A DNA stretch of 64,000 bases from Schmidtea polychroa (lineage: Eukaryota), in the NCBI GenBank assembly GCA_044892525.1, contig CM097885.1:30754001-30818000 (forward strand), written 5' to 3'. The position numbers and the translations under genes are program-made. A model generated the notes under the pieces. That model was not told the origin of the DNA. It saw only the letters and a list, made by a program, of their open reading frames with translations, and searched no databases. This document shows, piece after piece, positions 4,603 to 55,783 of this stretch (position 1 is its first letter; every line of letters begins with the position of its first letter).

Positions 4603-5666
4603 ATGGAACAATTAGTTGCTTCAACTCAAAAAATTCACGAATTAGAAGATGTAAATTATTTTTTACAAAAAGAAAATGCTGGTCTTTCAAAGGACATTGA
4701 AAATTTGAAACAAGAATTAATCGGAAAAGATTTAATGGAAAGTGAATTACTCCAAAGAAATGAAGATTTAGCGAGAAAATTGACATTATTAAATATTGAT
4801 AAAGAAAATAGAAAATTTGAAGAATTATCCGAACAACTTTTACATTTTGATCCGGTTTCAAAAAATCTAAGAGAAAAGGAATTGTTGAGTAAATTTCGTC
4901 ATTGTCAAAATGAGAATGAAGCATTGAAAAAGAAAATAAATAATTTAAATAAACAAATCAAGTCACAAAATGAAGAAATAAAAATTATTTCTTTTGAATT
5001 GAAAAGATCAAAAGGTTTTAAAGTAGAATTACAAAAAGAAAATGCTGGTCTTTCAGAGGACATTGAAAATTTGAAAAAAGAATTAATCAGAAAAGATTTA
5101 ATGGAAAGTGAATTACTCCAAAGAAATGAAGATTTAGCGAGAAAAGTGACATTATTAAAAATTGATAAAGAAAATAGAAAATTTGAAGATTTATTAGAGA
5201 AACTTTTAACCTTTTATCAGATTTCGATAAACTTGACAGAAAAGGAATTGTTGAATAAATTACGGCCTTGTCAATATGAAATTGAAGCATTGAAAGAGAA
5301 AAAAATTGTTTAAATAAACAAATCAAGTCACGAAATGAAGAAATAAAAATTATTTCTTTTGAATTGAAAAGATTAAAAGTCTACAATGTAGAATTACAAT
5401 CTCATGCCGAAGTCGCCACTGATAATCGGACGAAATCAGAATTATTGGCGATTTTAAGATCTCGAATTGAAGAGAAAATCCACTGGGAAACATACGCAGA
5501 AACTCTTTTGAGAATGATTTTAGTTAAATGTCCTGATATACTTGAAGTTACTGCTATTAAACGGTATTGCGAAATTAGTTCAAGTGAGCTCGTCGACATG
5601 TGGAACTTCCACATCAATAAGGTCATTAATGAGTGTGAACTTGTTTCCAAATATAATACTTCGTGA
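4603..5666 (+). pseudogene. Coiled-coil repeat protein, copy 2, frameshifted
   Basis: ORFs 4603-5313 and 5364-5666 are joined by a 1-nt deletion near 5300 relative to copy 1. Internal 366-bp (122-aa) tandem repeat. Preceded by a splice-acceptor-like TTTTTAG. Confidence 0.6.
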
Positions 5667-6949
5667 AATGATTTTCCTGCTCCCCTAATGGAGATTGAGA
5701 TTTCACTTTTATTTATTTCAGTAAGAGAAAAAGTTTTTTTTGAACTTTTTTTCAAATTATTTACGACAAAAATTATCATTTATTCTTCCAAATCCGGCTT
5801 GTAGATTTGATTAATTTTTTTAACAGTTTATTTTAATTAATTTTCGCTTTGGATTTCTCATGTTTATTTTGTACAATTTGTTTTGTATTTATTTTTTATC
5901 AAAATTTTTTTTATTTTATTATTAAGAAACTGTTGAAAGCATATTTATTGAAAATTGGAATATCACTATTGTTTTAATTTTAAAATATTATTATTTTGTT
6001 TAATTACTTTTAATTTTTAAAATAAGTTAAAGAAAATGCATTTTCATATGGTCCAAATGAATCATCAGAAAGTAGATCATAAAATGCCCTCTAGGCCAGT
6101 TTTTGGTGCACCCTCCCCTTATTACTAACTAACAGAAATCAATAATTATTCCATTACTTAGTATTAACTTACTTAAATTACTTAACCTAATTATTTAGTT
6201 AAATTCTTTTTAAGTATAAAGTGATGATTTCTTGGTAGCAGCATTTGACAAGATTGACAAGGACTATCTTATAGTCGAAATTTTTTTCATTAAATACAGT
6301 ATTCGCTGCAAAAGGCTTAAATTATCACTTTATTGTTTTAAATTCTTTTTAATAATATTAATTTTTAAATATTTTAATTTGATTATTAAATTATTTTTTT
6401 TATTATTAACTTTATTTTGCTTAATTCTTAATTACTTTAAATAACTTTTTTTTATTTTGAAATTTTTTATATTAAAATTTAATTGTCTTTTTATTATTAT
6501 TAATACAATTACATATTAATTTTATTATTATTTTACATGTTTCGTATTTTTTTATTATTCAGAACACATACATAATGAATAGTCAGTTTATATACCATAA
6601 TTATTGTTAGCCACAGAACTTCTGGTATTAATTGGATCCATTTAATATTTCAAATACAACGTTTTATTATATAATCACAATAGTATTTAAACAAATCATA
6701 TCATAATTTGTTTGAGGAGTTTCTATAAAAATAATTAATGCATAAGTAAGGATTGCAACATACAGACAACATACAATAATAATTTAATAATTTTTTAGAA
6801 TGCCTCACAATTATTATAAATTTTAGCACTAATAACGACAAAAATAAATATGTTGCAAAATGAAAGATCCCATCATTGAATTCAAATAAATGACATTAGA
6901 GGGTTTAATACATATGATTTACATATACATAACAACAAAATAAGTTGAG

Positions 6950-10373: not shown

Positions 10374-12768
10374 CAGGGGCGGATTAAGCTTGCACGGGGA
10401 TCTTGGCTGCAATTCAAACTGGGGCCCGGTCCAGTACAGTGTCCATATAAAATGATTGCTAGCAGCTAATGTAAGACTGTAACTTGTAAGGCAGAGTTAA
10501 AAATAAAAAATTAAATATAAGTAAATTTAATTTATATAAAGTTAAATGAATTCACACTTCATTAAAATATTTATTATTAGACTATATATTTCAACCTAGA
10601 ACCTACGCTTGCGAACTTTTCTCATGGCGAAGTTATCAATTATGTCAGTAAAGCTAAGTGAGCATACAATTTCACTTTCGATGCTCATTAAAAAGAGCAG
10701 ACTCAGCCTTTGGCAGATGCCCCTCGGATGGCATCATTGCTGAGCTGAGTTAGGTTTGTAAGAAAGCCAAAGCTCTCATGGATGTCTTCATATGCGTCTA
10801 ACCGATGTTGGAGAGCTGAAGAGAGTTTTTCAATGATTACCAAAAATACCTCAACCTTGAATTTTTGTCTCGGTCAAAATACTGTTTCAGCTAATGGCCC
10901 TTTATCAAACTAACACTTTCTCTTTTGTAATATTATTGAAGATTGTTTATACTCTTTCTCCACAGACTTCTGCTTTCCTTTTTCTTCATAAGAATCAAAT
11001 TCAGAACGCTGCCTTTTAACAAACTCAAGGAGAGATTTCAACAAATGGATGGCTGAATTCAAAGATAGTCCTCGCTCTTGAAGGGACAAATTCGTTTTCT
11101 GAAATCTTTCTAAAATTGTGTAGCAAATTTCAAGTAAAATAGCGACTTTTAGTTGTTCAAGTTTTTCCGAAATCCTTCTGCTTTAAGTCGACTGTCACGC
11201 GGCTGATTTTAGTCAGTTGCCAATTCTTCCAATGATGCAATATTCTCATTGTATGATTTATTAACAGACCTCACAGCATCATGTCTGACTGATCATCTTG
11301 TGTCAGAAAAGGCTTTGTTAACAGGTAACCTTTTTAGGTGTTTTTGATGTACCTGCCAACGATGAGTAGATGCAACAAGCCAGGTATAAAGATTTTGCAA
11401 AAGGCAAAAAAAATCTGGCTGCAGCAGGACAACCTTCTGCTGCAATTTTCCCAAACAAATTAAGGGAATGAGCCGTGCACGGCACATAATGAGCAACACT
11501 GCACTTCTCACGAAGGATAGCCTTATACTTCCCACTCATATTTGCAGCGTTGTCGTATGACTGTCCACGGCAATCTTGAATTTGAATGCCATTTTCTTCC
11601 AAAAAATTAAGAATAGTTCGGGCAATTTCTGATCCAATGTGGGAATACATTGGTATGAACTTGATGAATCGTTCTACAGGGCCAAATTGTGCAACATACC
11701 GGATTATCACTGTTAACTGGTCCACATGCATAACATCTGGCGTGGAGTCTACAGATATCGAGAAGTACTTTGCAGATTTTATTTCAGCAACAATAACAGA
11801 CAATACCTTTTGACCCATCAGTTCAATCAACTCTTCACAGATAGTTGAGGAAATATAAGACGTGTGCCACATCCTTTATTTCCATGTTGGGAGATATGTT
11901 CAACAAGAAATGTGTCAAACTGACTCAGTAGTTCCAGCATTCCAAGGTAGTTACCATTGCTCGGTGAGCCTAAAAGTTCGATTTTTGCCACGGAATCCAA
12001 GACCACGAATACAAAGAAATTGTATAACGCTTACTATCCTTATAAGTACTTTTTTCCAATATTGGACTTCACTTTCAAATTGCTTGGAAAGATTGGAGTC
12101 TATTTGCATGGATGATTTACGACCACTTAGTGTTGCCATTACATTAAGATGTTGCTTAGAGTTTTCATGACTCGAAAGCATTTCATGGGCATGCTTCGAA
12201 TCCTTAAAGCCAGTTGTAAGCTTGCTCACTGTCTGTGAGATCAACTTGCATACAAAACAATAAACACAGTCACTAGTTTTTGAATAGCATAACCAATTTC
12301 TGTCAAACCGCTTTCCTGTTCGCGCATGAGCACGTGTAAACAATGTTAAAGTACAATAACGGCTTTGTCCCTCCTTATCCGAATGTATACATGATTCTTT
12401 AAAACCGTCATCCTTATGTTGACAAAATGATGAACCACGCTGAATCAAGTGATTATGCATGTTCTCAGAGATTTTTTCTGGCCAAAGATGAAGATCATTA
12501 ATGGCAACATAATCCAAATCCATAACAGCCTGTGAAGAAGCAGGCTCATTAGTCATGACTTCAGTGTTCACTGAGTTCTCTTCATAATCTGTTTTTGGCA
12601 TCGTAGTTGGGTTGCAGAAGAATGTAATTTTATGAGTTTTTTCATATAACTCCTTTTCTCTTTTTTCAGTTTTAATGAAGCTGCACGATTTTGTGCGCCA
12701 CTGGGATATGAACGTTGCATGACTATAATTAATTTCTGATATAAAAACAAATTTTAGACAACGATATA

Positions 12769-15419: not shown

Positions 15420-18400
15420 ATGAGCAGTGAATCTGTCGAAGTACATTCTTATTATTGAAATTACCTTTTTTACTGTCTTTTGAAAAACTTTCAGTGTCCA
15501 TTATGTATGGAACCCATGGATTTTGATGATGTGGACTTTTACCCTTGTCCTTGCCGATATCAAGTAAATAATTAGTTCAAAATTAGTATGGTGTATCATG
15601 TTTATTGCTATTATAGATTTGTAGATTTTGTTGGTATAAAATTATTAATGAAGAAAATGGATTATGTCCTGCTTGCCGAAAGGTGAAAAAATATTTTTCA
15701 ACCAACATTTAATACAGAAATTTTATTTGATTTAGCCATACAACTCTGAGCATCCGGCTTCATATAAACCTCGTACAGAAGAAGAGTATGAATTTTTAAT
15801 TTTATTTTAAAGAAATATTTCCCAATTAGTTTTAATAAAATTGACATCTTGAAAATTAATATGAAATATTAAGATTCATTAATCATGTTTTTTTGAAGTA
15901 TATTTAGCTAAAATAATTTTTTTTAAATTCACTTAAACCTATTTATATAATTATGAATTCTATATTTAATAAAAGTTAATTATTAATGTTCATGATAGTA
16001 AGTTGATATAAAATGATTTTCCGCCTCAAATTGTATATTAAACTAAATTTCTCATTCGTTTGTTATATTAATAATTCCTTAAATTGAACTGACTAGTTTG
16101 GAGTATTTATAAAAGATAATGTCAACATCAATAATTGTAGGGCTTAAATGATAATAAAATAAGATTGTCATTCTTTCATTTAATGCCTAATCGAAATTTT
16201 TGGTTATAAATAACTCATTTTAGGACACCTTAATTTAATTACATAATGTCCTAATACGGGAGGATGAGGTAAAAAAAATGCGATAATATAGGGATGGGTT
16301 AAAGTTATTCATTTACTCGTTACGTAATTTGTTGAACAATTCATACGATAGCGCTGTTTGTTTATTTTCTAAAACTCCTTACAGTTGATTTTTCTAAGAG
16401 TTTATAAAGCTCCCAATAAATCGGAATAATATAGCCAACAGTGATGCCAGATCCGCAAAAAGGTTAAACAAACGCATTTCGATTATATTTTCAACATATT
16501 AAAATCAAGGTAATCTAAAAATGATTTAAAATTTTTTTGTAAAATTCGTTTTTTTGGCTCGGAATTGTTATTTTGATATCGATATTTAAAAAACTGAAAA
16601 TTTACAAAACATACACTCAAATTCACGGTATCCCTCATTAGGTCGCGTTAATTAATTCTATTGGACTATTAATAGCATTTAATTATTTATATATTAATGC
16701 AATTCAACTGAAAACAGATAATTTACAAATTGGGAAAAAACATAAAATAAGATTAAATATGTAAAAATCGATAAATTAATTTGAGGATAACTCCAAATAC
16801 TCAACAAAGGCTTAAATGACCATTAAACAATTTTTACCGTTTAAATAATAATTAAAATACTTAACGACAAACGGTAAATCAATTATTTCCTCTTAGCACC
16901 AGAAGTTTTAAGTTTTAATCAAAATTAAACTGCTTTCCCATCATTTTAAAGCTTAACATCTGTTTTAGTATAACGAATTTCTCAAAAATCCATATAAATC
17001 ATGCCCACCTATGAGGCCATGTGTGTCGTTATTAAGAGAACCAAATTAGCATCTGTTAATTATTAATATTACTCAAAATTTAGAAAATAAAACCCCAATT
17101 TTTTCGCTGTTGCCTCACAGTTATCATTTCTGGATAAATATAATATAATGATATGGTAATCTAATTAACATCTGTCATCGAAATCCAATCGATAGACTGA
17201 AATTTTGGAACTCGAAATTAAACCAAATGAAGTGTCTGTGAATTTATATTTATCTCACTGTTAGAATTGAGCAATCAATATAAAATATGGATTGTTTCTC
17301 ACCCGCCTACTGCTAACCACCTTAATTGACCAACCCGGCATGTACAATGGAAAACACGCCTAAAATTAGTTTTCATTTAAATGATAAGCAAAAGAACATT
17401 TCTAATCTTTTTAATAACCAGCATTAAAACTTCCGATATAATATTTCCACCGGTTTTCTACTCTTTACTCGGTATATCGTTAGCAAGGAAACCTTCACTT
17501 TATAATTTCAAAGGTTATCCGTGTATAGAGGGTTGTCATTCAGTTCAACAATATGAAATCTCAGAAAACACTAAAAATTAACAAACATTAAGTTCCACTT
17601 TATATTTTTAAATAAAGACAAATAATAATAATTGACGTAAATTTTGTCAAGTACCAAAAATCGTTTTAAAAATAAAATCTATACATAAGGTACATTTAAA
17701 TAATTTCTAAGCAATATTGGTTCTGTCATGTTAATGGGTCGGAAAAAGTGAGCCTCATCTATAAAACTACTGATACGTTGAAAACTCTAGGATACATGAG
17801 TTACAATAGAAGGTATCATACTCTAGGAAGCCTATGCTATGTAGGTTACAATAGAAGGTATTATACTGGCAAATGTATCAGTTAGGCCTAGGGTGCATGG
17901 GGGCAATAGAAGATATACTCTAGGAAATGTATCATCAAATCGAGGGTACATGAGTTACAATAGAAGGTAATATATTCTAGCAAATGTATCAGTTAGGCCT
18001 AGGGTACCTGGGGGACATTAGAAGGTATTATACTGGCAAATGTATCAGTTAGGCCCTAGGGTACGTGGGGGACAATAGAAGATATACCCTAGAAAATGGA
18101 TATGTATCATCAAATCTAGGGTACATGAATTATAATAGAAGGTATTAAACTCTTCCAAATGTATCAGTTAGGCCTAGTGTACATGGAGGACAATAGAAGA
18201 TATTCTCTAGGAAACGTATCATCAAATCGAGGGTACATGAATTATAATAGAAGGTATTAAACTCTAGCAACTGTATCAGCTAGGCCTAGGGTACCTGGGG
18301 GACATTAGAAGGTATTATACTGGCAAATGTATCATCAAATCCAGGCTACATAGTTTACAATAGGGTACATAGACTAGTAAATTACTGTAGATAACCCAAA

Positions 18401-19424
18401 AATGTAATGAAAGTTGATGAGTATAATGAAAAACAATTCCCTTAATAAATTAATTTTTTAAAACATAATTCAATTATTCAACTTTCTTTTTCATTTGATA
18501 ATTTAATTACAAACAAACTCGTTTTTCTCCACTTGATTAAATAATTTACTGTAATTTTCAATTAAAATTTCCCGAACAACAAAAACAACAGCAATACATA
18601 TGAGTGTTGTTTGTAATCATTATTTATTATTGATTAAACGCGCACCATAACTATATTGAATGAGAAATTGCTAATAAATTGGGTAATATTTCTCATCGGA
18701 TCTCTGGAATATTATAATTGATCGTAATTGTGATTACAATAGAATTAAAAACAAACTGAAAAGTTCAAAAAAGGTCTGTCCAAAAAAAGGGAAGCCCGCG
18801 CCAGAAGGCAAAGAATATCTATCAGAATATCGAGTATTACAAAAGAATCTAATATTCGTAGTCGGCCTGCCAATGCGCATGGCCGATGAAGTGGAATTAT
18901 TGAAGGGGTCAGATTACTTTGGTAAATGCGGCAAAGTTTACAAAATAGTTATTAATCAAAATCAAACTTTTCCCGGTCCTCAAGTAAGAGTTTAATTTGT
19001 TTATTTATATATAATTATCATTAACAATATCGCATTAAATTCTCTAAATAACTTGAATAAAATACTAAAACAATAATTAAGTGAAAATCTATATATAAAT
19101 ATAAATATAAAATGGGAAAAGTTAGTTAAGAATTAAATACAAATAAAAATGTAAATTGAGAAAGTTTTTATTTATAATAAAATATGATAGTTTACAATTT
19201 AATACTTTATTATTTAATATTTTTATTATTATATTATTAAAATAATAAAATGATAATTTAAGCCTTTTTCTGCAAATAATGTATTTATTGAAAAAATTTT
19301 CGACTACAAGATAGTCCTTGTCAATCTCCTTTATTGTTTTAAATAATAAATGCTGCTACCAAGAAATCATCATTTTATATTATTATATTATTATTTTATT
19401 ATTATTATTATTATTATTTTATTA

Positions 19425-19495
<71 letters not shown>

Positions 19496-19565
19496 TTATT
19501 ATCATTATTATTATTATTATTTTATTATTTTTATTATTATTATTTTATTATTTTTATTATTATTA

Positions 19566-19614
<49 letters not shown>

Positions 19615-19626
19615 TTATTATTATTA

Positions 19627-19675
<49 letters not shown>

Positions 19676-19713
19676 TTATTATTATTATTATTATTATTTT
19701 ATTATTATTATTA

Positions 19714-19774
<61 letters not shown>

Positions 19775-20984
19775 TTATTTATTGATCCGGTTACAATTAA
19801 TAATGTGCAAATTGGGGTAAAATCATATAGGACATAGAAAATAGAAAAACAACTGGAACTTAGCCGAGAACAGTATTTGTACAGAGATCGATATATGAAG
19901 TGCAAAATAGTTATTAGAAGCACTTTTAGGTGTTACGTATAAGAACCGCGAAGTGTGAATAACCCCGATGTGACCATTAAACCCCAATAACATCAAAAAT
20001 GATATTATTGGTAAATTCTTTCAAGTTATCGATTTTTCCTGCCCAAAAACATTATCTATCCTGTTTAAGATAGAATTTAAATAGAGACTTGAATCTTTTT
20101 CCGATTAAAACGATTTCTCCTTGAATATTAGTTCTGTAATCATAAACTTTCTATGCAATAACTGGTCGCATATAATTGGAACAAGTTGATATTGGTTGAC
20201 ACATCCAACCGTTTCCTTTAGGTTTCATATTATCGATCTTATCACCGATTAAGATGCTTCTTTAACTGCCCATTGATTGACTGGGTTTTTTTCCAGTTCA
20301 AACTTTCTTTACATATGTTTTTTTTGTGTCGTCTATTTTCAAGTGGCTTTTCTGGCAACAATAAAAAATATGTCGTTTGAATATCTTGTAAAATTTAATT
20401 TATAATTTTTAATATTTTTTATATAAAAATAGTCTTTATACACAAAATCAATATTTTTTTCTACTCTGAAATTCAATTTGCCCACAACATAGTTGTAAAA
20501 TTTCATAAACAAAAAATTGTTCACAATAATAGTCAATATTGGTAATATTTCTTATGTGTACGAAGTATTGATTAAATAAAATATTATTTCTATTATGTTA
20601 TTTTATTATTATTATTATTATTATGATTATTATTATTATTATTATTTTTATTTTATTATTATTATTTATTATTTAATATTTTAATATTATTTTATTATTA
20701 TTTAATTTATTAATATTATTATTTTAATTTTATTATTATTCAGTTAATATATTAATATTATTTTATTATTATTATTATTTTATTTTATTATTTTTATATT
20801 ATTATTTATTATTTATTTATTTATATTATTATTTTATTTTTAATATTTTAATATTATTTTATTACCTTAATATTTTTATATTATTTTATTACTATTCTGT
20901 TAATTAATATATTATTTTATTTTTAATATTTTAAGATTATTTTATTATTATTCTGTTATTTAATATATTAATATTATTTTTTAA

Positions 20985-21039
<55 letters not shown>

Positions 21040-24000
21040 TAGCTATTTTCATTTACTCAATTATGAGATTGTATAAATAGATATTGATTAAATAGAAAAG
21101 ATCTAAAATTCATTTTATAATAAAATGACATATTCAGGGAACTCCGTGTTTAAGTGCTTATGTCACATACCACCGAAACGAAGATGCATTAAAAACTCTT
21201 GTCGATCTAAAAAAATTAGAAATCGACGGTAGAGTTGTAAAATTATCTCTGGGAACAACAAAATACTGTAGTCAGTTTTTACGGAACCGGAAATGTACAA
21301 AACAAGACTGCATGTATCTTCATGAGATGGGTGATCAAGCTGCCAGTTTTACTAAAGAAGACATGGCAAACGGTAAACATACCGACTATGAAAATCAGCT
21401 AATCCAAGAATATCATGATATATTGAAACTCATTATTGTCAATGTTTGTACATCTTCATCGACATGTACCACAACATCGGTTACAAATACTGATTGTGCA
21501 ACACCTACCCAAAGAAAAACCAGTTTGACAACCAGTTCATCAATTAGCGCAGCAGCAGCAGCAGTTGTAGTACCGAATCTTTTACCATCTACCGCCACAA
21601 AGTCTCAGCGTCCGGGTTTAATCCAAATGACGCCAATTGGAACCGACCCGAATGATGCCAGTAAACTCTATTCAGTTTCTGGCGAAATTAGCAATTCAAA
21701 AGTAACCGTCAGTAAATCCACCACAGAATTAACCTCTAGCGTTTCGAAAGATATAAACTATCAGCATAGTATACTAGATAACAATTCTCAATTATCAAAT
21801 GTCGTATCACATCCAAGTGAAATATTAACCAGTACACTGAATTCCACATCTCCCCTGTCACGGGTTTCAGATCAGAAATCATTTATGAACAGTTTGAATT
21901 CAGTTGGTTCGTCGAATTCTCTGCTGGAAAGTTTCTACCAGTTAAATTCTCAAAACCACGCCGCAATCAACAATAACAACAATAATAATAACAACAACAA
22001 CAACAATAATAATCAGTCATACGATCACAACATTAATCAACAGGCAAACAACAACGGTGTGCTTAACTACGGTCAGTATCAGTATCGAAACGAAATGGAT
22101 ATAAATCGCATATTTGGCTCGGAGAAACCGAATTCACATTACGATCAGAAATATAAAGATACAGCCGATATAGATTTTGATCCGATTAATGTTTCCCGGC
22201 AAGCATTGGCTGAAATGATTGCCGTTGAAAATCGTCAAAAAATGACTCCGATCAATAATTATATACCAAATAACAAATTGCTAACGAGTGATGTCTTATA
22301 CGCAGCCCCACAACGCAACATGCTTCGACCAAATCCAAATGAATTCTTAATGCAACAGAATAATGATTTTTTCACATTAAACTCTCGTGCACCGGGACAG
22401 CCATTTATTCACGATAATAAACCGTCTCCCAGCGAATCGAGACTCAATCAGCAAATGTCCAATCTAAATCTAGTTGGAAATTCAAACAATATTATTCCTA
22501 GCACTTCAACTGCTGTGCAATCACTTTCTTCCGGTTTCCCATCACCTCCTCCTGGGTTTGAGTCAACAAGCAATAACAATTGTCTTGGTGATCCGTCATC
22601 CAATGATATTATGACTATGATAATGAATTCAAACAATGTTGACATGTATCCAAGGTATCAGAATCAACACTCAACTCCAGATCTTCAATTGGGAATGAAT
22701 CATAATCAGTTCAATAATCAGTTTCCTATCAATTATAACTGTCAAAATCAGGTAGCTACTTTTATCATATTTTGTATTGTTAAATTCCATTGCATTATGA
22801 TAATAGCAATTATTATTATATCCAGCGATATAAATATTAGTTTCCTGTTAGTAATTCGTAATTATAGAATTTCTATTCTAATTTATTGTTATATTTAAAT
22901 TATCATTGATACTCTACAACTAATTTGAAACTCCTTCCAATCATTGGCTGATTGGCTAAAAATATATTTGATCTGTAATTTCATTAAATTAATGATTTAC
23001 AATAATTATTTTAAATCAATATTATTAAATTAATGTTTTACGGTAATTATTATAAATCAATAATGGAGATCAATATTATTAAATTAGTTTTTACGGTAAT
23101 TATTAGAAAATCAATAATGAAGATCAATATACTGAAGATAATAATAACGAAGATTTTTTAATCATTGTCTAATTGGCTAAAGATATATTTGATCTGTAAT
23201 TCATTAAATTAATGATATACAATAATTATTTTAAATCAATATTACTAAATCAATAATGAAGATCAATATTAGTTGAATAATTGTTATATTTAAATTGTCA
23301 TTGATACTATACAACTAATTTGAAACTCCCCTTCCAATCATTGGCTGATTGAATAAAAATATATTTGATCTGTAATTTTATTAAATTAACGATTTACAAT
23401 AATTATTATGAGTCAATAATGAAGATCAATATTGTTAAATTTGTTTTACAGTAATTATAGTAAATCAATATGGTTATATATTAAAAAGAGAGCTTGAAGA
23501 CTATAAATCAGTTTATATATCGATGTTTTGATACTCACGAATTTTCGGCACTGCCTTTTTCAAGTGAATTTATATATCGATTACAAGTAATTACAAATAA
23601 ATGTAATTTATTGATTTGGATTTGGATAATAACTTTTAATTTTAATCGATAAAATGACATTTTAATTTCAATGCTCTCTAAAAATATACTTTTCTCTATC
23701 AAATAGTGGATTATTTGTCTCTAGTCGGGCAGTAATTTTTTGAATAAATATTTTACAATAATTTTTTATTTTAATCAATTATGCAATATTTCCATTCAAA
23801 TGCAACCGGCAATCGATTACACCCATTCAACTTATGTATAATTTATCCCAGTATTTTTGTTACAAAAATCATTGACATTTAACATATTGATTGGAATTTT
23901 TAAATACACTTTTCTCTATTGATTTAAAAGATTCTATCCAAATTTCACCAGGAAATCTCCATTGAAACTGCTAAATTATTATCATATTAATTGTTTTGAT

Positions 24001-31900: not shown

Positions 31901-33380
31901 ATTTAATTCTTTTATCCTATTAAACCAATCCAAAGTATTTTGCTATTGAAGTGAGATACATCTATTTTGAATATATTGAGATTATCCCTGAACTTTACTT
32001 TTTTGTATATTATTCACACAAACAGAGATTTCAGTGTTAATCGAAGTTTTGTTTTTTGCCTACTGGACTCACTCGTACTTCTTTCTCCTGACCATCAGGG
32101 GTAGATCTGACTACACCAGGGTGTACGTTCCTAGATTGTGTTGTACATGAATGTGTCCATTTTAGAGAAAAATTAATTGTAATCGCAAATTATAATTAAA
32201 AGAGTAAAACTAATTTAACATAATACAAATTTTCTAAAAATAAATCTCCTTCAACGAAGCATAAAAATATATTGGCTTTAAGGGTACAATGAACTACAAA
32301 ACAAACTCAACAATAAATTTTATAACGTAGAAGTTTAATCATTTATATGTGAAGCCTTACTTTTGGGGCTTCTTCAACTTGAATTCGGATAGTTCTATCT
32401 TCTCTTTACTTAGGATTGTTGTTGAATGGTTTTCCACGTTCTAGTTTTGCCAAAATTTCACTGGTTTTTCTTGTTTTAGTTTAGATTTCTGTTGAGTTTG
32501 ATCAGTTTATTTCTATTGATAGTTGTTTTCTTTTGAGGGTGTCTCTAAGTGATTTTTCCTTTATGAGTGCTCCTTATCCGAGATTTTGTTTGAGCCTGAC
32601 AGATTTGCTTTTCGTAGTATAGTGTTCTTGTCTTGGAGTTTGTAATTTGTAGATTTTTTGTGTCGTTCTTTTGTATTTTATTGGGTATTTAATCATTTGG
32701 TTTTATCTCAGGTAAAATTCAAAGCTACCTGATCAACAGTTGAATAATTTTAGTTAAGTGCTGTTGATTCAGCAACTTTCTCTCCGAAGTTTAAAAAACA
32801 TTGATTCTACTTAAGTCTAAATTTGAATATCAAATTAGAATTTTTAATTTTCTTTCTGACTATTTTTCGTAGTCGTTTTTTCGCGTTGATTTATCAATAA
32901 TTTATTTATCCAACTTATCGTTCTATTGGATTTTAACGATTTATCATAGTTTTATTGAAGTTAATGACAGATGCCCCCTAAAATTCCATTATCTTCCGAT
33001 ACTAGGAAACCTATATCTACATTTTTAAAATTCGGTAAAAACTCCGTTGCTTATTTTTTGTTCGTTTTTTCTGTGGGGATAACTTGCAATTTTAAATTCA
33101 GTTCAGCCGCACAGCCCCAGAGTGAAATTCCATTTTCTACTAAAAAAACTAAGAGATCTATAATAGTTCTCGAAGAATAGACGATAGGAGATATTTTTGG
33201 GAATGATTCTTGCAAGTTTTGATGACCTTCTAAATTGCCAATCCCCTGTGTTTTTTCAATGACATATTTAGTTTAACAACAATATTTGGTCAGCCGCCTA
33301 ATCTGGTATTGCGATATCTCTATGTTGTTTATCACTTTCTTGATCAGAATATACTTCAAATTCATAACCGAAACCTTTAA

Positions 33381-34220
33381 AGTAGTATATAATGAGGACT
33401 CCAGCGCACTTTCAATGTCATGGAATATCAAGATCTAATATAGACCAATCGAATCATTTATTTTTTTTAATTAACATTTTATTTAATTACTTCTTTTTAA
33501 TTTTTTCTTTTTAATTTTATTAATTAATTATTTTATTATGTTTTATTTTAATTTATTACATTTAATTAATTTATTAGTTTATTAATATTTTATTTTAATT
33601 ACTTACGCTATTTAATTATTATTATTATTATTTTTTTTTATTTATTTATTTATTTATTTTTTTTTAATTAAAATTTTATTTAATTACTTCTATTTATTTA
33701 TTTTTCTTTTTAATTTTCTTAATTAATTATTTTATTATGTTTTTTTAGTTACTTACTTTAGTTACTAACTTTAGTTAATTTTTAATTTATTACATTTAAT
33801 TAATTAATTAGTTTATTAATATTTCATTTTAATTACTAACGTTATTTAATTATTATTATTATTATTTATTTTATTTATTTTATTTATTTATTTATTATTA
33901 TTTTTTTTTAATTTTACATTTACATTATATTCTAACAAGAGCGTAAATTATAACATTAATATTTCAATTTGAATAAAATTTTAATTAGAAATTATTTAAT
34001 TTATTATAAAATAAAACGCTGAGTTAATTTTAGATAAACCGGATATTAATTTTTCGGAAAAAATAAATAAATAAATAAAATAAACACGAAAATAATATTT
34101 CTTACTTGAAACTAATTATCTAAATTAATTGGACAAATGAATAATTAAATGATAAAACACATTATAATTAACTAAATCAAACAATTCGCAATATATATTT
34201 TATTATTCACATAAATTTAA
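33381..34220 (+). repeat. Left TIR (840 bp) of the Polinton-like element
   Basis: Reverse complement of 40243-41021, apart from few substitutions and indels (including a ~47-bp segment near 34039-34085 absent on the right). Confidence 0.95.
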
Positions 34221-34633
34221 AAGAGACAAAGGGGTGAAAAGAGATAGAAAAAACAGTAGAGTAGGGTAATGTGTGGAGCCGGGTGAAACCTTTGCATAGA
34301 TCTCTTCAAGACCTTTCGAATGATGTGAATAAAATATAATTAAATTTTAAAATACCGCAACGTAATATATTTAAAATACCGCAACGTAATATATTTAAAA
34401 TACCGCAACGTAATATATTTAAAAAGTATGATGAGTAATATGTCTTTATTACGTAATATGTATTTGTTATGTAATTAATAAAATTTTAAAAAAAACCATC
34501 CACCCAGGGGTGGGGGTATGACGCAATGTCCCATGTGACGTCATCGATTACGTAATAGTTCTTTGTTCCCGGCTCCACACATTACCCTACTCTACTGTTT
34601 TTTCACTCTCTTTTTCACCCCTTTGTCTCTTTT
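34219..34633. repeat. Inner ~65-bp inverted repeat enclosing 3 x 24-bp tandem repeats
   Basis: Arms at 34219-34283 and 34568-34633. AAAATACCGCAACGTAATATATTT x3; TGACGTCA near 34536. Confidence 0.9.
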
Positions 34634-34724
34634 CTCTAAGTGCGATTGGGATTTAAGTGTAACCATGTATAGGCAGAATTTAATTCTCTACAAAATGGCT
34701 CATTTACAATTTTAGTTTGTCGCT

Positions 34725-35135
34725 TTGTGTGTAATACACACACATTTTTTTACAATAAATTTGTATTTTTCGCGCGGTTAACGTAATTTTCTTGGATTTT
34801 TATTCATATATTATATAGATAAAATTTAATTTTCTATAAAATAGCTTGATTAAAAATTATGTCTCGTATGTTGTGTGTAATACACACATGTTTTTACGAT
34901 AAATTTGTATTTTTCATACAGTTAACGTAATTTTCTTAGGATTTTATTCATATAATATATAGATAAAATTTAATTTTCTATAAAATGGATTGATTAGAAA
35001 TTATGTATCTTATTTTGTGTGTAATACACACATGTTTTATGATAAATTTGTATTTATTATACGTTAACGTAATTTCCTTGGATATTTATTCATATATTAT
35101 AGAGATAAAATTTAATTTTCTATAAAATGGATTGA
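34725..35135. repeat. Three ~143-147-bp tandem repeats, each starting with a TGTGTGTAATACACACA hairpin
   Basis: Copies start near 34726, 34873 and 35016. Confidence 0.88.
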
Positions 35136-35739
35136 TCTAGAGTTTAAAATGTTGTATTATTTTATTACTTTGTTGCAATATTTTTATAATCTTATAACAA
35201 TTTGCTTAAATATTTTACATCTGGTGAAATATTTCCGAAATATGTTATTACTTTGTTGTAATTTACTGAAAGACTTCACAATTTATTACAATATTCTTTT
35301 TTAATTTGTTGTCCGTCTTCGAAATAATGTATTGATTTGTCCCAATTAACATCATTATTTTATTACTTTGTTGCAATATTTTTATTATTTTAGTTACAAT
35401 TTGAGTAATATTTTACAACTTTGTTGAAATTTTCTGAAATATGTTACTACTTTGTTGTAATATTTTCTAATCTTGTTACAATTTGCTTAAATATTTTACA
35501 ACTGTTGAAAATTTATCTGAAATATGTTATTACTTTGTTACAATTTTATGAAAACTTTATTACTGTTTTGCAATTTGATGAAAAATGATATTACTTTGTG
35601 GGTTCATCACATTATTTTTATTAAATTATTATGAAAATGTTAAATAAGTCAAATTTAGCGTAAAAATGTGTTTTAATATATATTGAAGTTTTAAAATACT
35701 GCAACGTAATGCATTTATTTTTCCTACCCCTTCCTTGAT

Positions 35740-35805
35740 TTTGATTGGTCAGAATTTAATCATGTGTAATATATAAGCAGTAACTTTTCAAATGTTTGTC
35801 ATTTA
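35740..35805 (+). promoter_or_regulatory. Putative Pol II promoter of pPolB
   Basis: Inverted CCAAT (TGATTGGTC ~35742), TATATAAG ~35770 and Inr-like TCATTT ~35799. Confidence 0.45.
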
Positions 35806-35831
35806 AACTTTTAATTTAACTTATATAAGTG

Positions 35832-36180
35832 CAGTGGCGTACCAAGGATTTCTGGGGCCCTTGTGCAGATTTTGGGACGCACAAAATATTTGTCGAACGA
35901 TGTGATCCGAGGAACCAAACCAAGCAAATAATTTAATAGATGAATGGGTGTGACACATGTGGTTTACAACTATATCCAATATAGATTCCAAATAATATTA
36001 AATGTATAAACCGTCCAAACTGTGGTTGCTGTCTTAATAAAAACAAAACAAACGCCAAAGCGATGCTTGGTTTGATGACAATCGGGGAATTTATAATGCT
36101 CGAACGTATAAATTTTACTAATTTTTCCTCCTGGGCCCTTGTGCCGTGCACAACCTGCACAACGTATTGCTACGCCACTG
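35832..36180. mobile_element. hAT MITE in the pPolB 5' UTR
   Basis: TIR CAGTGGCGTA(C/G)CAA, 8-bp TSD TATAAGTG. Confidence 0.93.
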
Positions 36181-36184
36181 TATA

Positions 36185-37242
36185 AGTGAATAACTTTTTA
36201 TTCTCTATCTAATATTAATGATTATTTTCTTTTAGTGAACGGATGCAGTTTATATAAATTTTGTATTGCCGAAAGTCATGAAGATGTGGAGAACTGTAAA
36301 TCAGTTACATCATCATATTTCAAGATAAATGACTCTACCTTATCGGTTTACATATGTCCGGAATGTCTCATTATATCACCAGGTAGGTGGTTAATGTTTG
36401 TACGACAACACGGACACCATCTTAGAAGATTCGAAGAAACGAAGAGCAGGATGATCACTCTTTCTACTATTAACAATTATTAATTTTTTATAGAACAATC
36501 GAAAATGAATACATCATACGATCCTAAGCAGATTAAAGAATATGTTACAAGTTATGTTATTTAAGTTGTTTAATATTAATTATAAATATAGTTAGACAAA
36601 ACTCTGGCACCGCAAAACGAAAGTCAATATTTTACGGAAATGGAGACTCTAACATACAATTGTGTCCACGTCGGGAGTCTGACTTAAATGGTTCTCGTGT
36701 TGAATTGACAAGCGATGTATCTGCAATTAATTCTCCTGACATTGTTGTTCCAGATTGTCTCATCAAAGAAATAGAAGATCATATTCAACGAATGGGGACA
36801 GTAAAAATCCAATTTGGACTTTGTGCAGAGTTTATCAAAGAGGATGGTGAAATTAAAAAATGGTGTTTGTCGAATAAAGCAATTACAATGTCATCTTCAT
36901 TTATTAATGATGGAATTGAAAAATTAAAAGAAAAGTTGGAGAAATACACTCAACAAAGTAGTGGGTGGAGAATTCATAAAATATTAGAAGTTACTATGAT
37001 TTTAACTAAATTATCAGACATAATACATGTATCTGGTAAGTTTATTTACATTATTATATATATAAATCAAGAGATTACTTAGGTTCAAGTTACATTAAAA
37101 CGCCAAATTACCTGAAAAACTGTCAGGCTTTAGTTAATGTTCAAAACAATGATCAATTCTGTTTTTTATATAGCATACTAGCCGTATTACATTATGATGA
37201 CATACGTCGGGATAGAGAAGGAACAAGAAAATATAACTTAAG

Positions 37243-37333
<91 letters not shown>

Positions 37334-40239
37334 TTATAAATGTCATAAATCATTGAATTTTGTTTTTAAGACTTAAAATGGAAATTTGAATGGTTTCCGA
37401 TGAAGTTGGTTAACATTTGTCAATTTGAAGCAATGAATCCAAATCTAGCGATCAATGTTCTCAAATATAATAAAGATCCAATTAAACAAAAAACTAATGA
37501 TATTTTCAAGAATCCGTTCGTTGACTTGGTATATAGAAGTACTTCGACGGGATCTCAGATATATCTCCTATTGATTGAAGAAGGTAATATTTCTTTTAAT
37601 CATTAAAAATATTAACTATATTTAGAATTAAATTATCATTTTTTGGCTGTAACTAATCTCGATCGACTGCTGAATTACAGAGATAGAGTAGAAGGAGTCA
37701 GAATCCAATCACATTGGTGTCATACATGTCTTCATGGGTTTCGAAAACATCCTGCTTTTGAAAGACATATAGGTCTTTGTAGGAAGAATGTGGAGCGGAC
37801 GACTCTATACTCAATGCCAGAGAATAAATATATCGAATTTAAAGACTGGAGTAAAACTATAAAACAGCAGTTTGTTGTCTACGCGGACTTTGAATCGATA
37901 TTACCTCTAGATGACAAGCACTTCTAAAAACATGAACCGATTGCATCTGAATTTGTGCTTCTTCATCAAGGTTGTCCGATCCGAAATGAAACATTTGTTG
38001 GGAAAAACTGTATCATTCAGTTTATACAAGCATTGGATGATATAGCTACAGACATAGTTTATCCGTGGTATAAAACTAATGGATCGAAGGAAATGATGGA
38101 ACTCACCTGGGAATAGCAGGAAGAATTCACGACTCAAACACATTGCTACCTTTGTAAAAAGATTATCAATATACCTGTTCGAGATCATGATCATTTTACT
38201 GGTCAATATCTCGGAGCAGCATATCAAGATTGCAACTTGGCTAGAAGAATCAATCCGTCTTTACCTGTTGTATTTCATAATCTTCGTGGATATGACATTC
38301 ATCATATATTAAAATATGCAATTGGAAAATTCCCCGATTGGAATTTAAATGTTATTCCTCAATCAACAGAAAAGTTTCTCACACTTACAGCGACATCGAA
38401 AGGCAGAAGAATTAGATTCATTGATTCTTTACAATTTTTAAATAGCAGCTTGGCAAATTTATCAAAAAATTTACCATGTCTTCCACTGACCTCAGATGTT
38501 TTCGAATCACAGATGATGACTTGTAAAAACATTTTTCCTTATGATATGGCTACATCAATGGATGTTTTACAGTCAATAACAGAATTACCACCGATTTGGG
38601 AGGGAGTTAGCCAAGAAGATTATATACATGCAAATCGAATCTGGCAACAATACAACTGTGAGACACTGCTAGATTACATGCTAGTATATCTCAAGCTGGA
38701 TGTTTTTCTATTGGCCGATGTTTTTGAAGCTTTCAGAGAAAAAACATTTGACGAAGATGGACTTGAGGCTCTATCGTTTGTTTCCATACCCGGATTAAGT
38801 TGGGCATCAGCTATTAAACAGTTACCTGAACCGGTAGAACTTATTCAAGATCCAGAGCTTTACCGTTTATTTGAAGCTGGTATTCGTGGTGGAATGACAT
38901 TTATCAACAAACATCATGTTGAAGCTGATGAATCAACACAAATGTCATACCTAGATGTTAATAATTTATATGGATGGGCGCTGTCGCAAAAACTTCATAT
39001 TGGTGAATTTAGATGGATAAATGATCAGACTGAAATGAATGGTATTGTTGAAAGATGTGCAAATGGGGATGAGTTTGATGGAGATCGTGGATATGTTCTA
39101 GAGGTTGACATCGTCATTCCTGATAGTATACAAGATAAGCTAGATGATTTACCTATAGCTCCTGAGCTTTGTTATCCACCTGGTAGTAAAGTTGAAAAGC
39201 TGTTAATTACACACGAATCGAAGACCAATTATGTTATTAATAGTAGAGTTTTGACTGAATGGTTGAGTTATGGCGCAAAAGTCACAAAAGTTAATCGTGC
39301 TGTAGAATTCAAGCAAGTAGCTATTTTTAAAGGCTATATTGATTACAACACCCAAATGAGAGCAGCTAGTACGGATTCGTTTCAGCGAGATTATTATAAG
39401 TTAAAGAACAACAGTTTATACGGTAAAACTGTGGAAAACATGAAGAAACGTATAAATTTGAGATTATGCAACCAAAGCAACCAAAACAACCAAACTTATT
39501 GTAGTCATCCTATGTTTCGTCGTAGCATCAAGATTGCGGATGATCTCATTGCTGCTATACTTGATTAGGAAATGGTGTGTTTAGATAGACCAATGTATAT
39601 TGGACAAAGCGTACTTTATCTAATTTATCTAAACTTCGCATGTACCAGTTTCAATTTAAAGAACTAGAGAGTTATAGAGAAGAATTCAATTGTCAAATTA
39701 ATATCGTAGCCGGTAACACAGATTCCTTGTTTTTAGAGTGTAAAAATGTTGATTTACGCTTACAACTGTATCCAAAAATGATTGCCGATGGGCTCCTAGA
39801 TACTTCAAATTATCCAGTGACTGATCCATTGTTCTCAGATAAAATTTGTTCGGTAATCGGGAAATTCAAGGATGAGAATAAAGGAAATCAATATAAAGAA
39901 TGGGTGTTTCTTCGACCCAAGTGCTACTCACTCCAAGGCGATAAAAACACTCTAAAAGCCAAAGGAATAAGACTTACAAACTCTAATCTTACACATGAAG
40001 CCTATAAAAAAGTGTATACTGATGGTGGAACAGTGAGCATCCCACAAAAAAGAATAGGAAGTGTCAATCATCAGTTGTATACTTTCATGACCGAAAAACG
40101 AGCTCTCCAATGTTTGGACGATAAAAGGTATTGGTACAATTGTAATGAAAGTTATGCCTATGGTCACTATAAGATTCGTCAAATGCATATTGCAACTGCT
40201 ATGTCTAGAAATGAATGCAAATCGAAACAAGCACTTTAA
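36185..40239 (+). pseudogene. Intron-containing protein-primed family B DNA polymerase (pPolB), ~1,200 aa when repaired
   Basis: Motifs SGW, GSSYIKTP..VNVQNNDQFCFLYSILAVLH, FPMK..FEAMN, YADFES (ExoI), RDHDHFTG (endoVII-like), FHNLRGYD (ExoII), LKLDV (ExoIII), DVNNLYG, KNNSLYGK and GNTDS. Introns at 36186-36235, (36383 or 36449)-36493, 36551-36591, 37036-37082, 37242-37370 and 37584-37625. Stops at 37925, 38114 and 39566; frameshift near 39620. Confidence 0.93.
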
Positions 40240-40242
40240 CAA

Positions 40243-41021
40243 TTAAATTTATGTGAATAATAAAATATATATTGCGAATTGTTTGACTTAGTTAATTAAA
40301 AAGTGTTTTATCATTTAATTATTCATTTGTCCAATTAATTTAGATAATTAGTTTCAAGTAAGAAATATTATTTTCGTGTTTATCTAAAATTAACTCAGCG
40401 TTTTATTTTATAATAAATTAAATAATTTCTAATTAAAATTTTATTCAAATTGAAATATTAATGTTATAATTTACGCTCTTGTTAGAATATAATGTAAATG
40501 TAAAATTAAAAAAAAAATAATAATAAATAAATAAATAAAATAAATAATAATAATAATAATAATTAAATAACGTTAGTAATTAAAATGAAATATTAATAAA
40601 CTAATTAATTAATTAAATGTAATAAATTAAAAATTAACTAAAGTTAGTAACTAAAGTAACTAAAAAAAACATAATAAAATAATTAATTAAGAAAATTAAA
40701 AAGAAAAATAAATAAATAGAAGTAATTAAATAAAATTTTAATTAAAAAAAATAAATAAATAAATAAAAAATAATAATAATAATAATTAAATAGCGTAAGT
40801 AATTAAAATAAAATATTAATAAACTAATAAATTAATTAAATGTAATAAATTAAAATAAAACATAATAAAATAATTAATTAATAAAATTAAAAAGAAAAAA
40901 TTAAAAAGAAGTAATTAAATAAAATGTTAATTAAAAAAAAATAAATGATTCGATTGGTCTATATTCGATCTTGATATTCCATGACATTGAAAGTGCGCTG
41001 GAGTCCTCATTATATACTACT
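40243..41021 (-). repeat. Right TIR (779 bp) of the Polinton-like element
   Basis: Reverse complement of 33381-34220; begins 3 bp after the pPolB stop. Confidence 0.95.
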
Positions 41022-41099
41022 CTTTAACACCACAGAAAATAATAATTTGAAACTTCAATTGTAATGTTTTAGATGTTGTTTAATGAATTGACATATTTT

Positions 41100-54755: not shown

Positions 54756-55783
54756 GGTATCTGGTATTTTCCCCCTATTGCAAAAACATTATTTTCCCCC
54801 TATTTTTTAAAAAAATATTTAAAAATTATAAATAAATAAAAAATAGTATTAAAATAAAGTTTACATAAAGAAACATATTATCGAATTAAATTTATTAAAT
54901 TATCAAAGTCTCTGTTTCCAAGTTTATCCTTCCACAGTGAATGCATGCTCAAATCCATCATTCTTTGTAGTCGTCGTTTGAGTTTATTCCACAATGATTC
55001 GATTGTCTGAGTATTAACTTCGTTGACAGTATTTACAAATTTTATGCTGTGGGTTACTGTTTGATGTACATATCCCTCGTTCGATAATTGATTATAAGCC
55101 CGCCATTCATCACTCCAAATCATAGAACCAGGACGACGAACACTTCTTATAATAGGAAGCAATAAGCTTGCAGATCTGTTTTCTACCAAATATACGTAAT
55201 ATTTTGCAGGTGTGCAAGATTTATCGGCTACACCAAACACCCATCTTTTCGAAGTCGAATATCGGCCTCTGTGGTACTTTTGTTTATATTTAAAATTCGA
55301 TTCGTCGATTTGATACAAGATGCCATTGCCGCCAAAGCAGTATGCACTTTAAAGATAGTTGTTTTTGAGACGTTTTAATCTCTTTCAGTAGTGGAAAGTG
55401 GTGTTTCGAATAACCATTTATAGTATACTAGAAGAAGTACTGCCAGGTCTGAATTAAAATCTTCAAAAAACGATCCTTTTCTTATGGACGCATACTTGTT
55501 CTTATTATTACAACCAGATTTTTAACACCTAAAGCCTGTTCCTTCCCGATGTCTTTTGTACTTCACGCTTTTTAAAAGAATCATACATCCTTCACAGTGT
55601 ACAATTTTTCTTAAGATTTCTTTAAGCCTGCAGAATTCAACTGCTGCTGGTGTGTTATTCAATAGAGGTAAAAATTCATTAGAAAAATCAATTTGAATTT
55701 TTTGAAATTTATATTTTATTTAAAAATAAATAAATATTTTTAATGAGTAGTATTTTTTTCTACTATAGGGGAAAATACCAGAT
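54756..55783 (-). mobile_element. Merlin/IS1595-like transposon, degenerate
   Basis: TIR (GGT)ATCTGGTATTTTCCCC; motifs QIDES..KYHRGR..WVFG, WSDEWRAY and NTQTIESLW. Degenerate flanks CAGGGAAAT/CTGGGAAAC. Confidence 0.9.

Follow-up and report, generated by a model that had tools for sequence, protein, structure and literature searches.

Polintons, also referred to as Mavericks, are adintovirus-like elements whose polymerase, pPolB, is laid out as terminal protein, vOTU-type domain, exonuclease and palm (TP-vOTU-Exo-Palm), with an N-terminal terminal protein of little-finger (LF)/PAD-like type, according to the available part of one recent account (10.1101/2024.03.18.585575). That their genes are usually intronless, as an earlier note on the DNA studied here stated, agrees with the accessible portions of two descriptions, namely of intact vertebrate Mavericks, for which no introns are given (PMC8097293), and of nematode Mavericks, in which core genes are intronless and cargo genes intron-bearing (10.1101/2022.07.12.499685). 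Introns of another kind, introners, are reported within Maverick-Polinton-like elements of dinoflagellates, where, in the part of the source available, they are transposon-derived families that mostly inserted after integration (PMC11957031). The accessible text of five further papers mentions no introns in pPolB (10.1101/2023.08.22.554363, PMC8502044, PMC6431247, PMC10680173, 10.64898/2025.12.11.693146), and our literature search found no account of a Polinton pPolB split by introns, nor of palindromes with polymerase as their sole gene, though annotations of this kind may exist in Repbase, in supplements or in subscription papers.

Here, we describe a Polinton-type pPolB gene from the 781-Mb, AT-rich genome of Schmidtea polychroa, lying in a 64,000-nucleotide stretch of contig CM097885.1 (hereafter the window), whose coding frame is divided by six short inserts, all within its first third. 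We think it probable that these are ordinary introns gained by a Polinton-derived lineage, and that the host spliceosome excises all six, so that a single protein results. The gene is the sole coding sequence (PF03175) of a 7,641-bp element (33381-41021) that ends in AGTAGT, has inverted repeats of ~800 bp (92% identical) and is flanked by a perfect 6-bp target duplication. Ends, terminal repeats and duplication length are those of Polintons, as is a pPolB with a terminal-protein domain of little-finger fold (10.1101/2024.03.18.585575, accessible part); unlike Polintons, the palindromic family to which the element belongs has no integrase, ATPase, capsid or protease, and its pPolB carries six introns. 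The features are listed below in window coordinates, sisters being other copies in the same genome and P numbers denoting pPolB homologues.

33375..33380, no strand: left 6-bp target-site duplication; the same 6-mer stands at 41022-41027
33381..34220, forward strand: left terminal inverted repeat with AGTAGT end, 92% identical to 40243-41021
34221..35831, no strand: non-coding centre, a spacer with a short inverted repeat and tandem repeats of 144-146 bp and ~199 bp
35832..36180, no strand: MITE-like insert of 349 bp, bounded by short inverted repeats and flanked by a target duplication of 8 bp
36186..36235, forward strand: intron 1, 50 nt, dividing the predicted start codon (A/TG); joining its flanks yields a Met that is aligned to the initial Met of P0005, P0010 and P0013
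36236..36459, forward strand: exon 2, a Cys/His-rich leader predicted to bind zinc, with weak tblastn matches to the N-termini of P0005, P0010, P0013 and P0014
36460..36493, forward strand: remnant of intron 2, 41-42 nt in sisters, its donor gone from the window copy through a 12-nt deletion
36494..36550, forward strand: exon 3, a poorly conserved linker unalignable to homologues; all 29 scorable sister arms keep its length of 57 nt and have no stop in it
36551..36591, forward strand: intron 3, 41 nt; several solutions restore the frame, the shortest being of phase 1
36592..37035, forward strand: exon 4, 444 nt, the entire terminal-protein (little-finger/PAD-like) domain according to its model fold
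37036..37082, forward strand: intron 4, 47 nt, interrupting an invariant Gly codon of the linker that joins terminal protein and vOTU-like domain; no gaps in 23 of 23 continuous relatives
37083..37244, forward strand: exon 5, 162 nt, carrying the vOTU-type Cys motif, from sister arms and homologue alignment
37245..37370, forward strand: intron 5, with an expanded (AT)n run; the donor used by sisters is altered in the window copy
37371..37583, forward strand: exon 6, 213 nt, central part of the vOTU-like domain
37584..37625, forward strand: intron 6, 42 nt, immediately 5' of the vOTU-type His strand; the alignment there is colinear with all 23 continuous relatives
37626..40239, forward strand: exon 7, end of the vOTU-like domain, exonuclease with endonuclease-VII-like insert, and polymerase (PF03175, E 1e-29; PF02945 in homologues)
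40243..41021, reverse strand: right terminal inverted repeat with ACTACT end
41022..41027, no strand: right 6-bp target-site duplication

The window copy is decayed. Its sisters have a full mirror-image arm, by comparison with which the left terminal inverted repeat is the remnant of a left arm whose pPolB was deleted. The family consists of 12-14-kb palindromes with two pPolB genes, from which the 7.6-kb window element derives by deletion. The 349-bp insert, which we take to be hAT-like, is missing from 29 of 29 sisters, and its right 8-bp duplication overlaps the intron 1 donor; the region directly 5' of intron 1 was considered as an exon of the element and ruled out, being this copy-specific insert. 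Besides the insert before intron 1, the 12-nt deletion at the intron 2 donor and the altered intron 5 donor, exon 7 is broken by stops at 37925, 38114 and 39566 and by a frameshift near 39600. The non-coding centre has a TATA-like box near 35770. Elsewhere, the window holds a near-identical duplicated segment (1-760 and 4801-5924, ~5.2 kb apart), and ISXO2-like transposase fragments (PF12762) and a DUF4371 protein (PF14291) at 54881-55348, 1882-2268 and 11321-11875.

The intron 4 donor has 658 exact matches in the genome versus 0 for the reversed control, and head-to-head pairs stand at 62 of the first 100 of these sites, an unbiased figure whose extrapolation suggests a family of ~450 elements. 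A closer view comes from 20 neighbourhoods, 10 of them picked for looking paired: 12 hold a palindrome of 12-14 kb in which two pPolB genes stand head to head, four have both ends with one arm partly deleted, like the window element, and four are truncated; six further palindromes were seen in addition to these 20. Each arm is 5-7 kb long with a whole pPolB, and 6-bp duplications with AGT-type ends occur in the window element and in 16 of 16 sisters that have both ends. Between the ends, no ORF for integrase, packaging ATPase, capsid or protease was found in five elements screened at >=80 aa and six more at >=150 aa. The arms of one element are nearly identical (median 99.98%, versus 97.7% between elements), and in 18 two-armed elements 87 private substitutions lie in both arms versus 42 in one; one arm would therefore be a copy of the other, made through conversion or fold-back replication.

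This genome is unusually rich in Polinton-type elements: a first look gave 13,856 candidates for pPolB, and for the capsid family 2,527. A bipartite arrangement, in which a capsid segment shares the ends of the palindromes, found no support in 10 capsid (PF21738) neighbourhoods, which represent another lineage with a pPolB 27.5% identical to that of the palindromes. One element of the capsid-bearing lineage (L103-L105) has its capsid and integrase end duplicated as a 3.2-kb inverted arm (99.9%).

The sister copies allow the gene structure to be read without the damage of the window copy. Introns 1 (50 nt), 3 (41 nt), 4 (47 nt) and 6 (42 nt) have in 30 aligned copies the sizes that the earlier note gave them, intron 1 measuring 50-51 nt in all 30. 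The boundaries first proposed for introns 2 and 5 were wrong because the window copy is decayed. Intron 2 had been read as 111 nt, which would excise a coding stretch with counterparts in P0005 and further continuous homologues, or as 45 nt from a mutated GG donor; the real donor lies within 12 nt near 36459 that are present in 29 of 30 copies and absent from the window copy, giving an intron of 41-42 nt and an exon 2 of 228 nt in sisters. Intron 5, read as 129 nt, does exist, with its donor 3 nt further downstream in 29 of 30 copies, which matches the length of the homologues; it spans 43-120 nt in sisters because the (AT)n run varies, and the length first given reflects the expanded run. The exonuclease/polymerase region is intron-free, as proposed: it runs in one frame against homologues to 39622, and its 867 codons are open in 16 of 29 scorable sister arms. 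The introns were also said to match those of two host genes in size. At 41-50 nt they compare with 53-54 nt for three introns, a small sample, of a gene that we take from its motifs to be CNOT4-like (15420-22898; 54, 53 and 53 nt, phases 0, 0 and 0, then a phase-2 donor); no MTCH was found in a Pfam scan of 150 of the 197 window ORFs.

For frame conservation, 32 sister arms were examined, of which the 29 with all six introns located were scored and three left out. In 29 of 29 scorable arms the internal exons measure 228, 57, 444, 162 and 213 or 210 nt, all multiples of three and stop-free, and the intron lengths drift by single bases; with one arm taken from each of 26 elements, 1 of 130 internal exon lengths departs from a multiple of three. 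In the same 26 elements, pN/pS for shared variants has the same value, 0.17, in exon 7 as in exons 2-6; for single-copy variants it is 0.61 in exons 2-6 and 0.44 in exon 7. The spliced frame thus appears to be under purifying selection, with the proviso that shared variants stem partly from recombined patches and may record ancestral selection. Introns 2 and 3 have zero substitutions over the 26 elements of this young family (median identity 97.7%), and are therefore no freer than the exons. No copy lacking intron 4 was found genome-wide by exact pattern (0 versus 658); in some copies this intron is 48 nt, with a stop-free read-through. A subfamily has a different, diverged intron 5 of 41 nt with site and phase unchanged and its ends conserved. 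The subfamily's diverged patch (L165:2880-3070; at least 40 near-identical matches, 844 candidates) spans exon 5, intron 5 and exon 6 and looks like recombination with an unseen sister lineage. What a P0010 search first returned as a divergent intron-bearing family was rejected as such, being the subfamily, at 96% identity.

GT-AG ends whose excision restores the conserved frame, the basis on which the introns were first proposed, recur in sister arms and in the comparison with continuous relatives. Frame-kept exons, drifting introns, selection, fit to homologues and the subfamily's intron 5 together make real introns much likelier than chance GT-AG pairs, and on this genomic evidence the six inserts are very likely spliceosomal introns. 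RNA data add no such support. Contigs from three runs guessed to be RNA and one high-depth run, any of which may be DNA, were placed on a sister arm; among the 15 of 79 joints listed, all 15 from the high-depth run X7, there is neither a spliced joint nor a skipped-exon joint, and unspliced contigs among those listed cross intron 1 (X1), intron 2 (X3) and intron 3 (X1, X3). Given hundreds of genomic copies, such contigs may be DNA or read-through; overall, the RNA data give no support for splicing and count mildly against it. They would fit inserts that are never spliced, namely insertions that became fixed because the gene is a mere passenger, the element being non-autonomous and relying for all its copying on helpers, which an element devoid of integrase and capsid would need anyway. 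We regard this as highly improbable: six inserts with GT-AG ends at frame-restoring sites, a pN/pS of 0.17, a diverged intron 5 that keeps its ends and a last exon open for 867 codons in 16 of 29 arms are hard to reconcile with a passenger.

As to when the introns arose, the comparison set consisted of 20 continuous metagenomic pPolB ORFs and three other lineages of the same genome, 23 in all, aligned with an X placed at each junction. Introns 4, 5 and 6 fall at gap-free positions relative to all 23; introns 2 and 3 lie within the linker that cannot be aligned to homologues. Scans of metagenome and viral contigs for continuous homologues returned no loci. In a tree from a quick search without bootstrap, the window pPolB stands beside the continuous P0002 and P0005 (support 82), with starred branches between it and the other local lineages. 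This placement tentatively favours gain of introns 2-6 in the lineage of the window gene, the homologues compared being metagenomic ORFs. The proposal that a Polinton pPolB had gained host-style introns is thereby supported, since its closest relatives in the tree are continuous ORFs and its spliced frame is under apparent purifying selection.

The note also held that all six introns are of phase 1, which remains so for the corrected sites, with intron 3 the least certain and the phase of intron 1 dependent on an assumed donor. When every frame-restoring GT..AG pair of 35-130 nt was enumerated, all pairs proved to be of phase 1 at intron 2 (two pairs) and intron 6 (three pairs); at the other sites, each with five pairs, phase 1 was found in four at intron 5, three at intron 4 and two at intron 3. 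Intron 3 is least secure, since introns 4-6 are fixed by homology and introns 2 and 6 allow no other phase; intron 1 can be assigned a phase only on the assumption that its donor is the one completing the ATG. Six phase-1 introns out of six have p = 0.0014 under uniform phases, 0.004 for any single phase and 0.003 when exon-final bases and the gene's codon-position usage are modelled. Under these simple models the pattern exceeds chance at p ~0.001-0.004, for a finding picked for its pattern. That selection, the partly assumed phases of introns 1 and 3, and the preponderance of G at codon position 1 of this gene, with a probability of phase 1 given G of 0.45, are what speaks for a different reading, in which real, constitutive introns share a phase by chance or as a by-product of an exon-final purine at codon position 1. 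We find this improbable, as p is still 0.003 for the six and ~1e-4, by the codon-position model, for all nine introns predicted in two lineages (below), every one of phase 1, and the CNOT4-like gene has phases 0, 0, 0 and 2, a sample of four and too few for a host baseline. If the introns are ordinary and constitutively removed, the shared phase would instead reflect a filter, the most tentative step of our reading: where introns of 40-50 nt flank exons that can be as small as 57 nt, splicing may join a donor to the acceptor of the following intron, and the polymerase would then stay in frame only if the gained introns share a phase.

The protein encoded by the joined exons would read, in order, zinc-binding leader, terminal protein, vOTU-like protease, exonuclease and polymerase. 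Exon 4 alone gives a confident model (pLDDT 89) that, among solved structures, is most similar to the E. coli Pol IV little finger (4ir1, with Z 8.2 and an rmsd of 2.4 across 92 residues), Y-family polymerase entries making up seven of the top nine rows, and an LF fold has been reported for Polinton terminal proteins using 4IR1, in the accessible part of Krupovic et al. (10.1101/2024.03.18.585575). By this modelling, the whole terminal-protein domain would reside on one symmetric exon. In a model of the homologue P0002, whose best solved match is phi29 polymerase, intron 4 maps to the linker after the terminal-protein domain, and introns 5 and 6 lie inside the next domain. This vOTU-like domain is thus split by introns 5 and 6 and spread over several exons; its Cys and His motifs, to which the available text of Krupovic et al. 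(10.1101/2024.03.18.585575) assigns a catalytic role, are intact and at their expected place in the sequence alignment.

Since exon 4 is the terminal-protein domain, skipping it would delete that domain cleanly, and it had been suggested that the symmetric exons are skipped in frame to vary the terminal-protein region. No result supports such a function. By analogy with adenovirus E2B, symmetric exons under regulated alternative splicing could yield polymerase with or without terminal protein, an idea to which the coincidence of exon 4 with the domain, the position of intron 4 in an inter-domain linker, the shared phase of nine of nine predicted introns in two lineages (p ~1e-4) and a strong in-frame alternative donor inside exon 2 in 30 of 30 copies all lend something. 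We nonetheless hold it to be unlikely. Introns 5 and 6 cut into the vOTU-like domain, whose intact Cys and His motifs mean that proteolysis could free the terminal protein; the ATG is completed by exon 2 only; the stop that retention of intron 4 would introduce is not shared by all copies; in the second lineage the terminal protein is not flanked by introns; and no skipped joint occurs among those listed. Constitutive removal of all six introns accords better with these observations, and the terminal protein would then be freed by the vOTU-like domain rather than by splicing. Splicing would moreover be obligatory, because the start codon arises only on removal of intron 1, and most of the introns, if retained, cut the frame short.

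The second lineage is likewise palindromic (14-15 kb) with a double pPolB, 56% identical over the polymerase stretch (L131-L136: G000:C1:245966600-245986599, C1:228136100-228156099 and C3:42833900-42853899). Upstream of its long ORF of 1301-1309 codons, three leader introns (44, 46 and ~204 nt) are predicted; they occupy sites different from those of the six introns above and are all of phase 1 in three of three copies, and none lies around the terminal protein. The tandem repeats of the non-coding centre are shared between the two lineages at 78-90%, against 56% for the polymerases, and this disparity suggests exchange on a common scaffold. Complete Polintons of ~16-19 kb with a related pPolB are also present (L137-L148, L174-L176), their ORFs presumably TBP-, ATPase-, integrase- and capsid-like from motifs. 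They are the likely, inferred source of integrase for the palindromes, which would borrow it within the same genome. Donors for the acceptor-like sites at which the pPolB frames of L137-L148 and L174-L176 start were not found; the view that the other local lineages are intronless was rejected, one having three predicted leader introns and two starting at acceptor-like sites. A bolder interpretation, which we offer tentatively and think rather unlikely, is that the palindromes form a distinct class of polymerase-only Polinton satellites, with pPolB selected in cis and the phase-1 exons acting as a splicing switch that sets the ratio of primer protein to polymerase, a rule that would have arisen independently in two lineages.

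If the six inserts are indeed introns of one constitutively spliced gene, several consequences follow. ORF-based surveys would score such a gene as broken and overlook its terminal protein. Comparison with continuous relatives locates six recent intron gains, which can be traced over hundreds of copies, so that intron gain, 5' bias and phase bias become testable in a virus-like element, and a start codon made only by splicing would tie replication to host nuclear splicing. We know of no direct demonstration of how Polintons replicate, and polymerase-only palindromes with mutually copied arms bear on that question.

Three described systems, besides Polintons themselves, come close to parts of what is seen here. 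In adenovirus, the E2B unit gives pTP and polymerase from one spliced unit as separate products of alternative splicing; the pPolB gene is similarly a gene of protein-primed replication with its start in an upstream exon, but here terminal protein and polymerase share one frame, the vOTU-type motifs are intact and the introns are host-sized. Mirror-image genomes are known as snap-back or copy-back defective viral genomes and as non-autonomous foldback transposons. The palindromes resemble these in being mirror images with both replication ends and homogenised arms, and differ in keeping two polymerase genes under apparent purifying selection and in having precise 6-bp duplications. As in the dinoflagellate introners, spliceosomal introns would lie within Polinton-like elements; compared with the accessible description of that system (PMC11957031), however, the six introns here are fixed in hundreds of copies and, by eye, have no evident common ends or target duplications.
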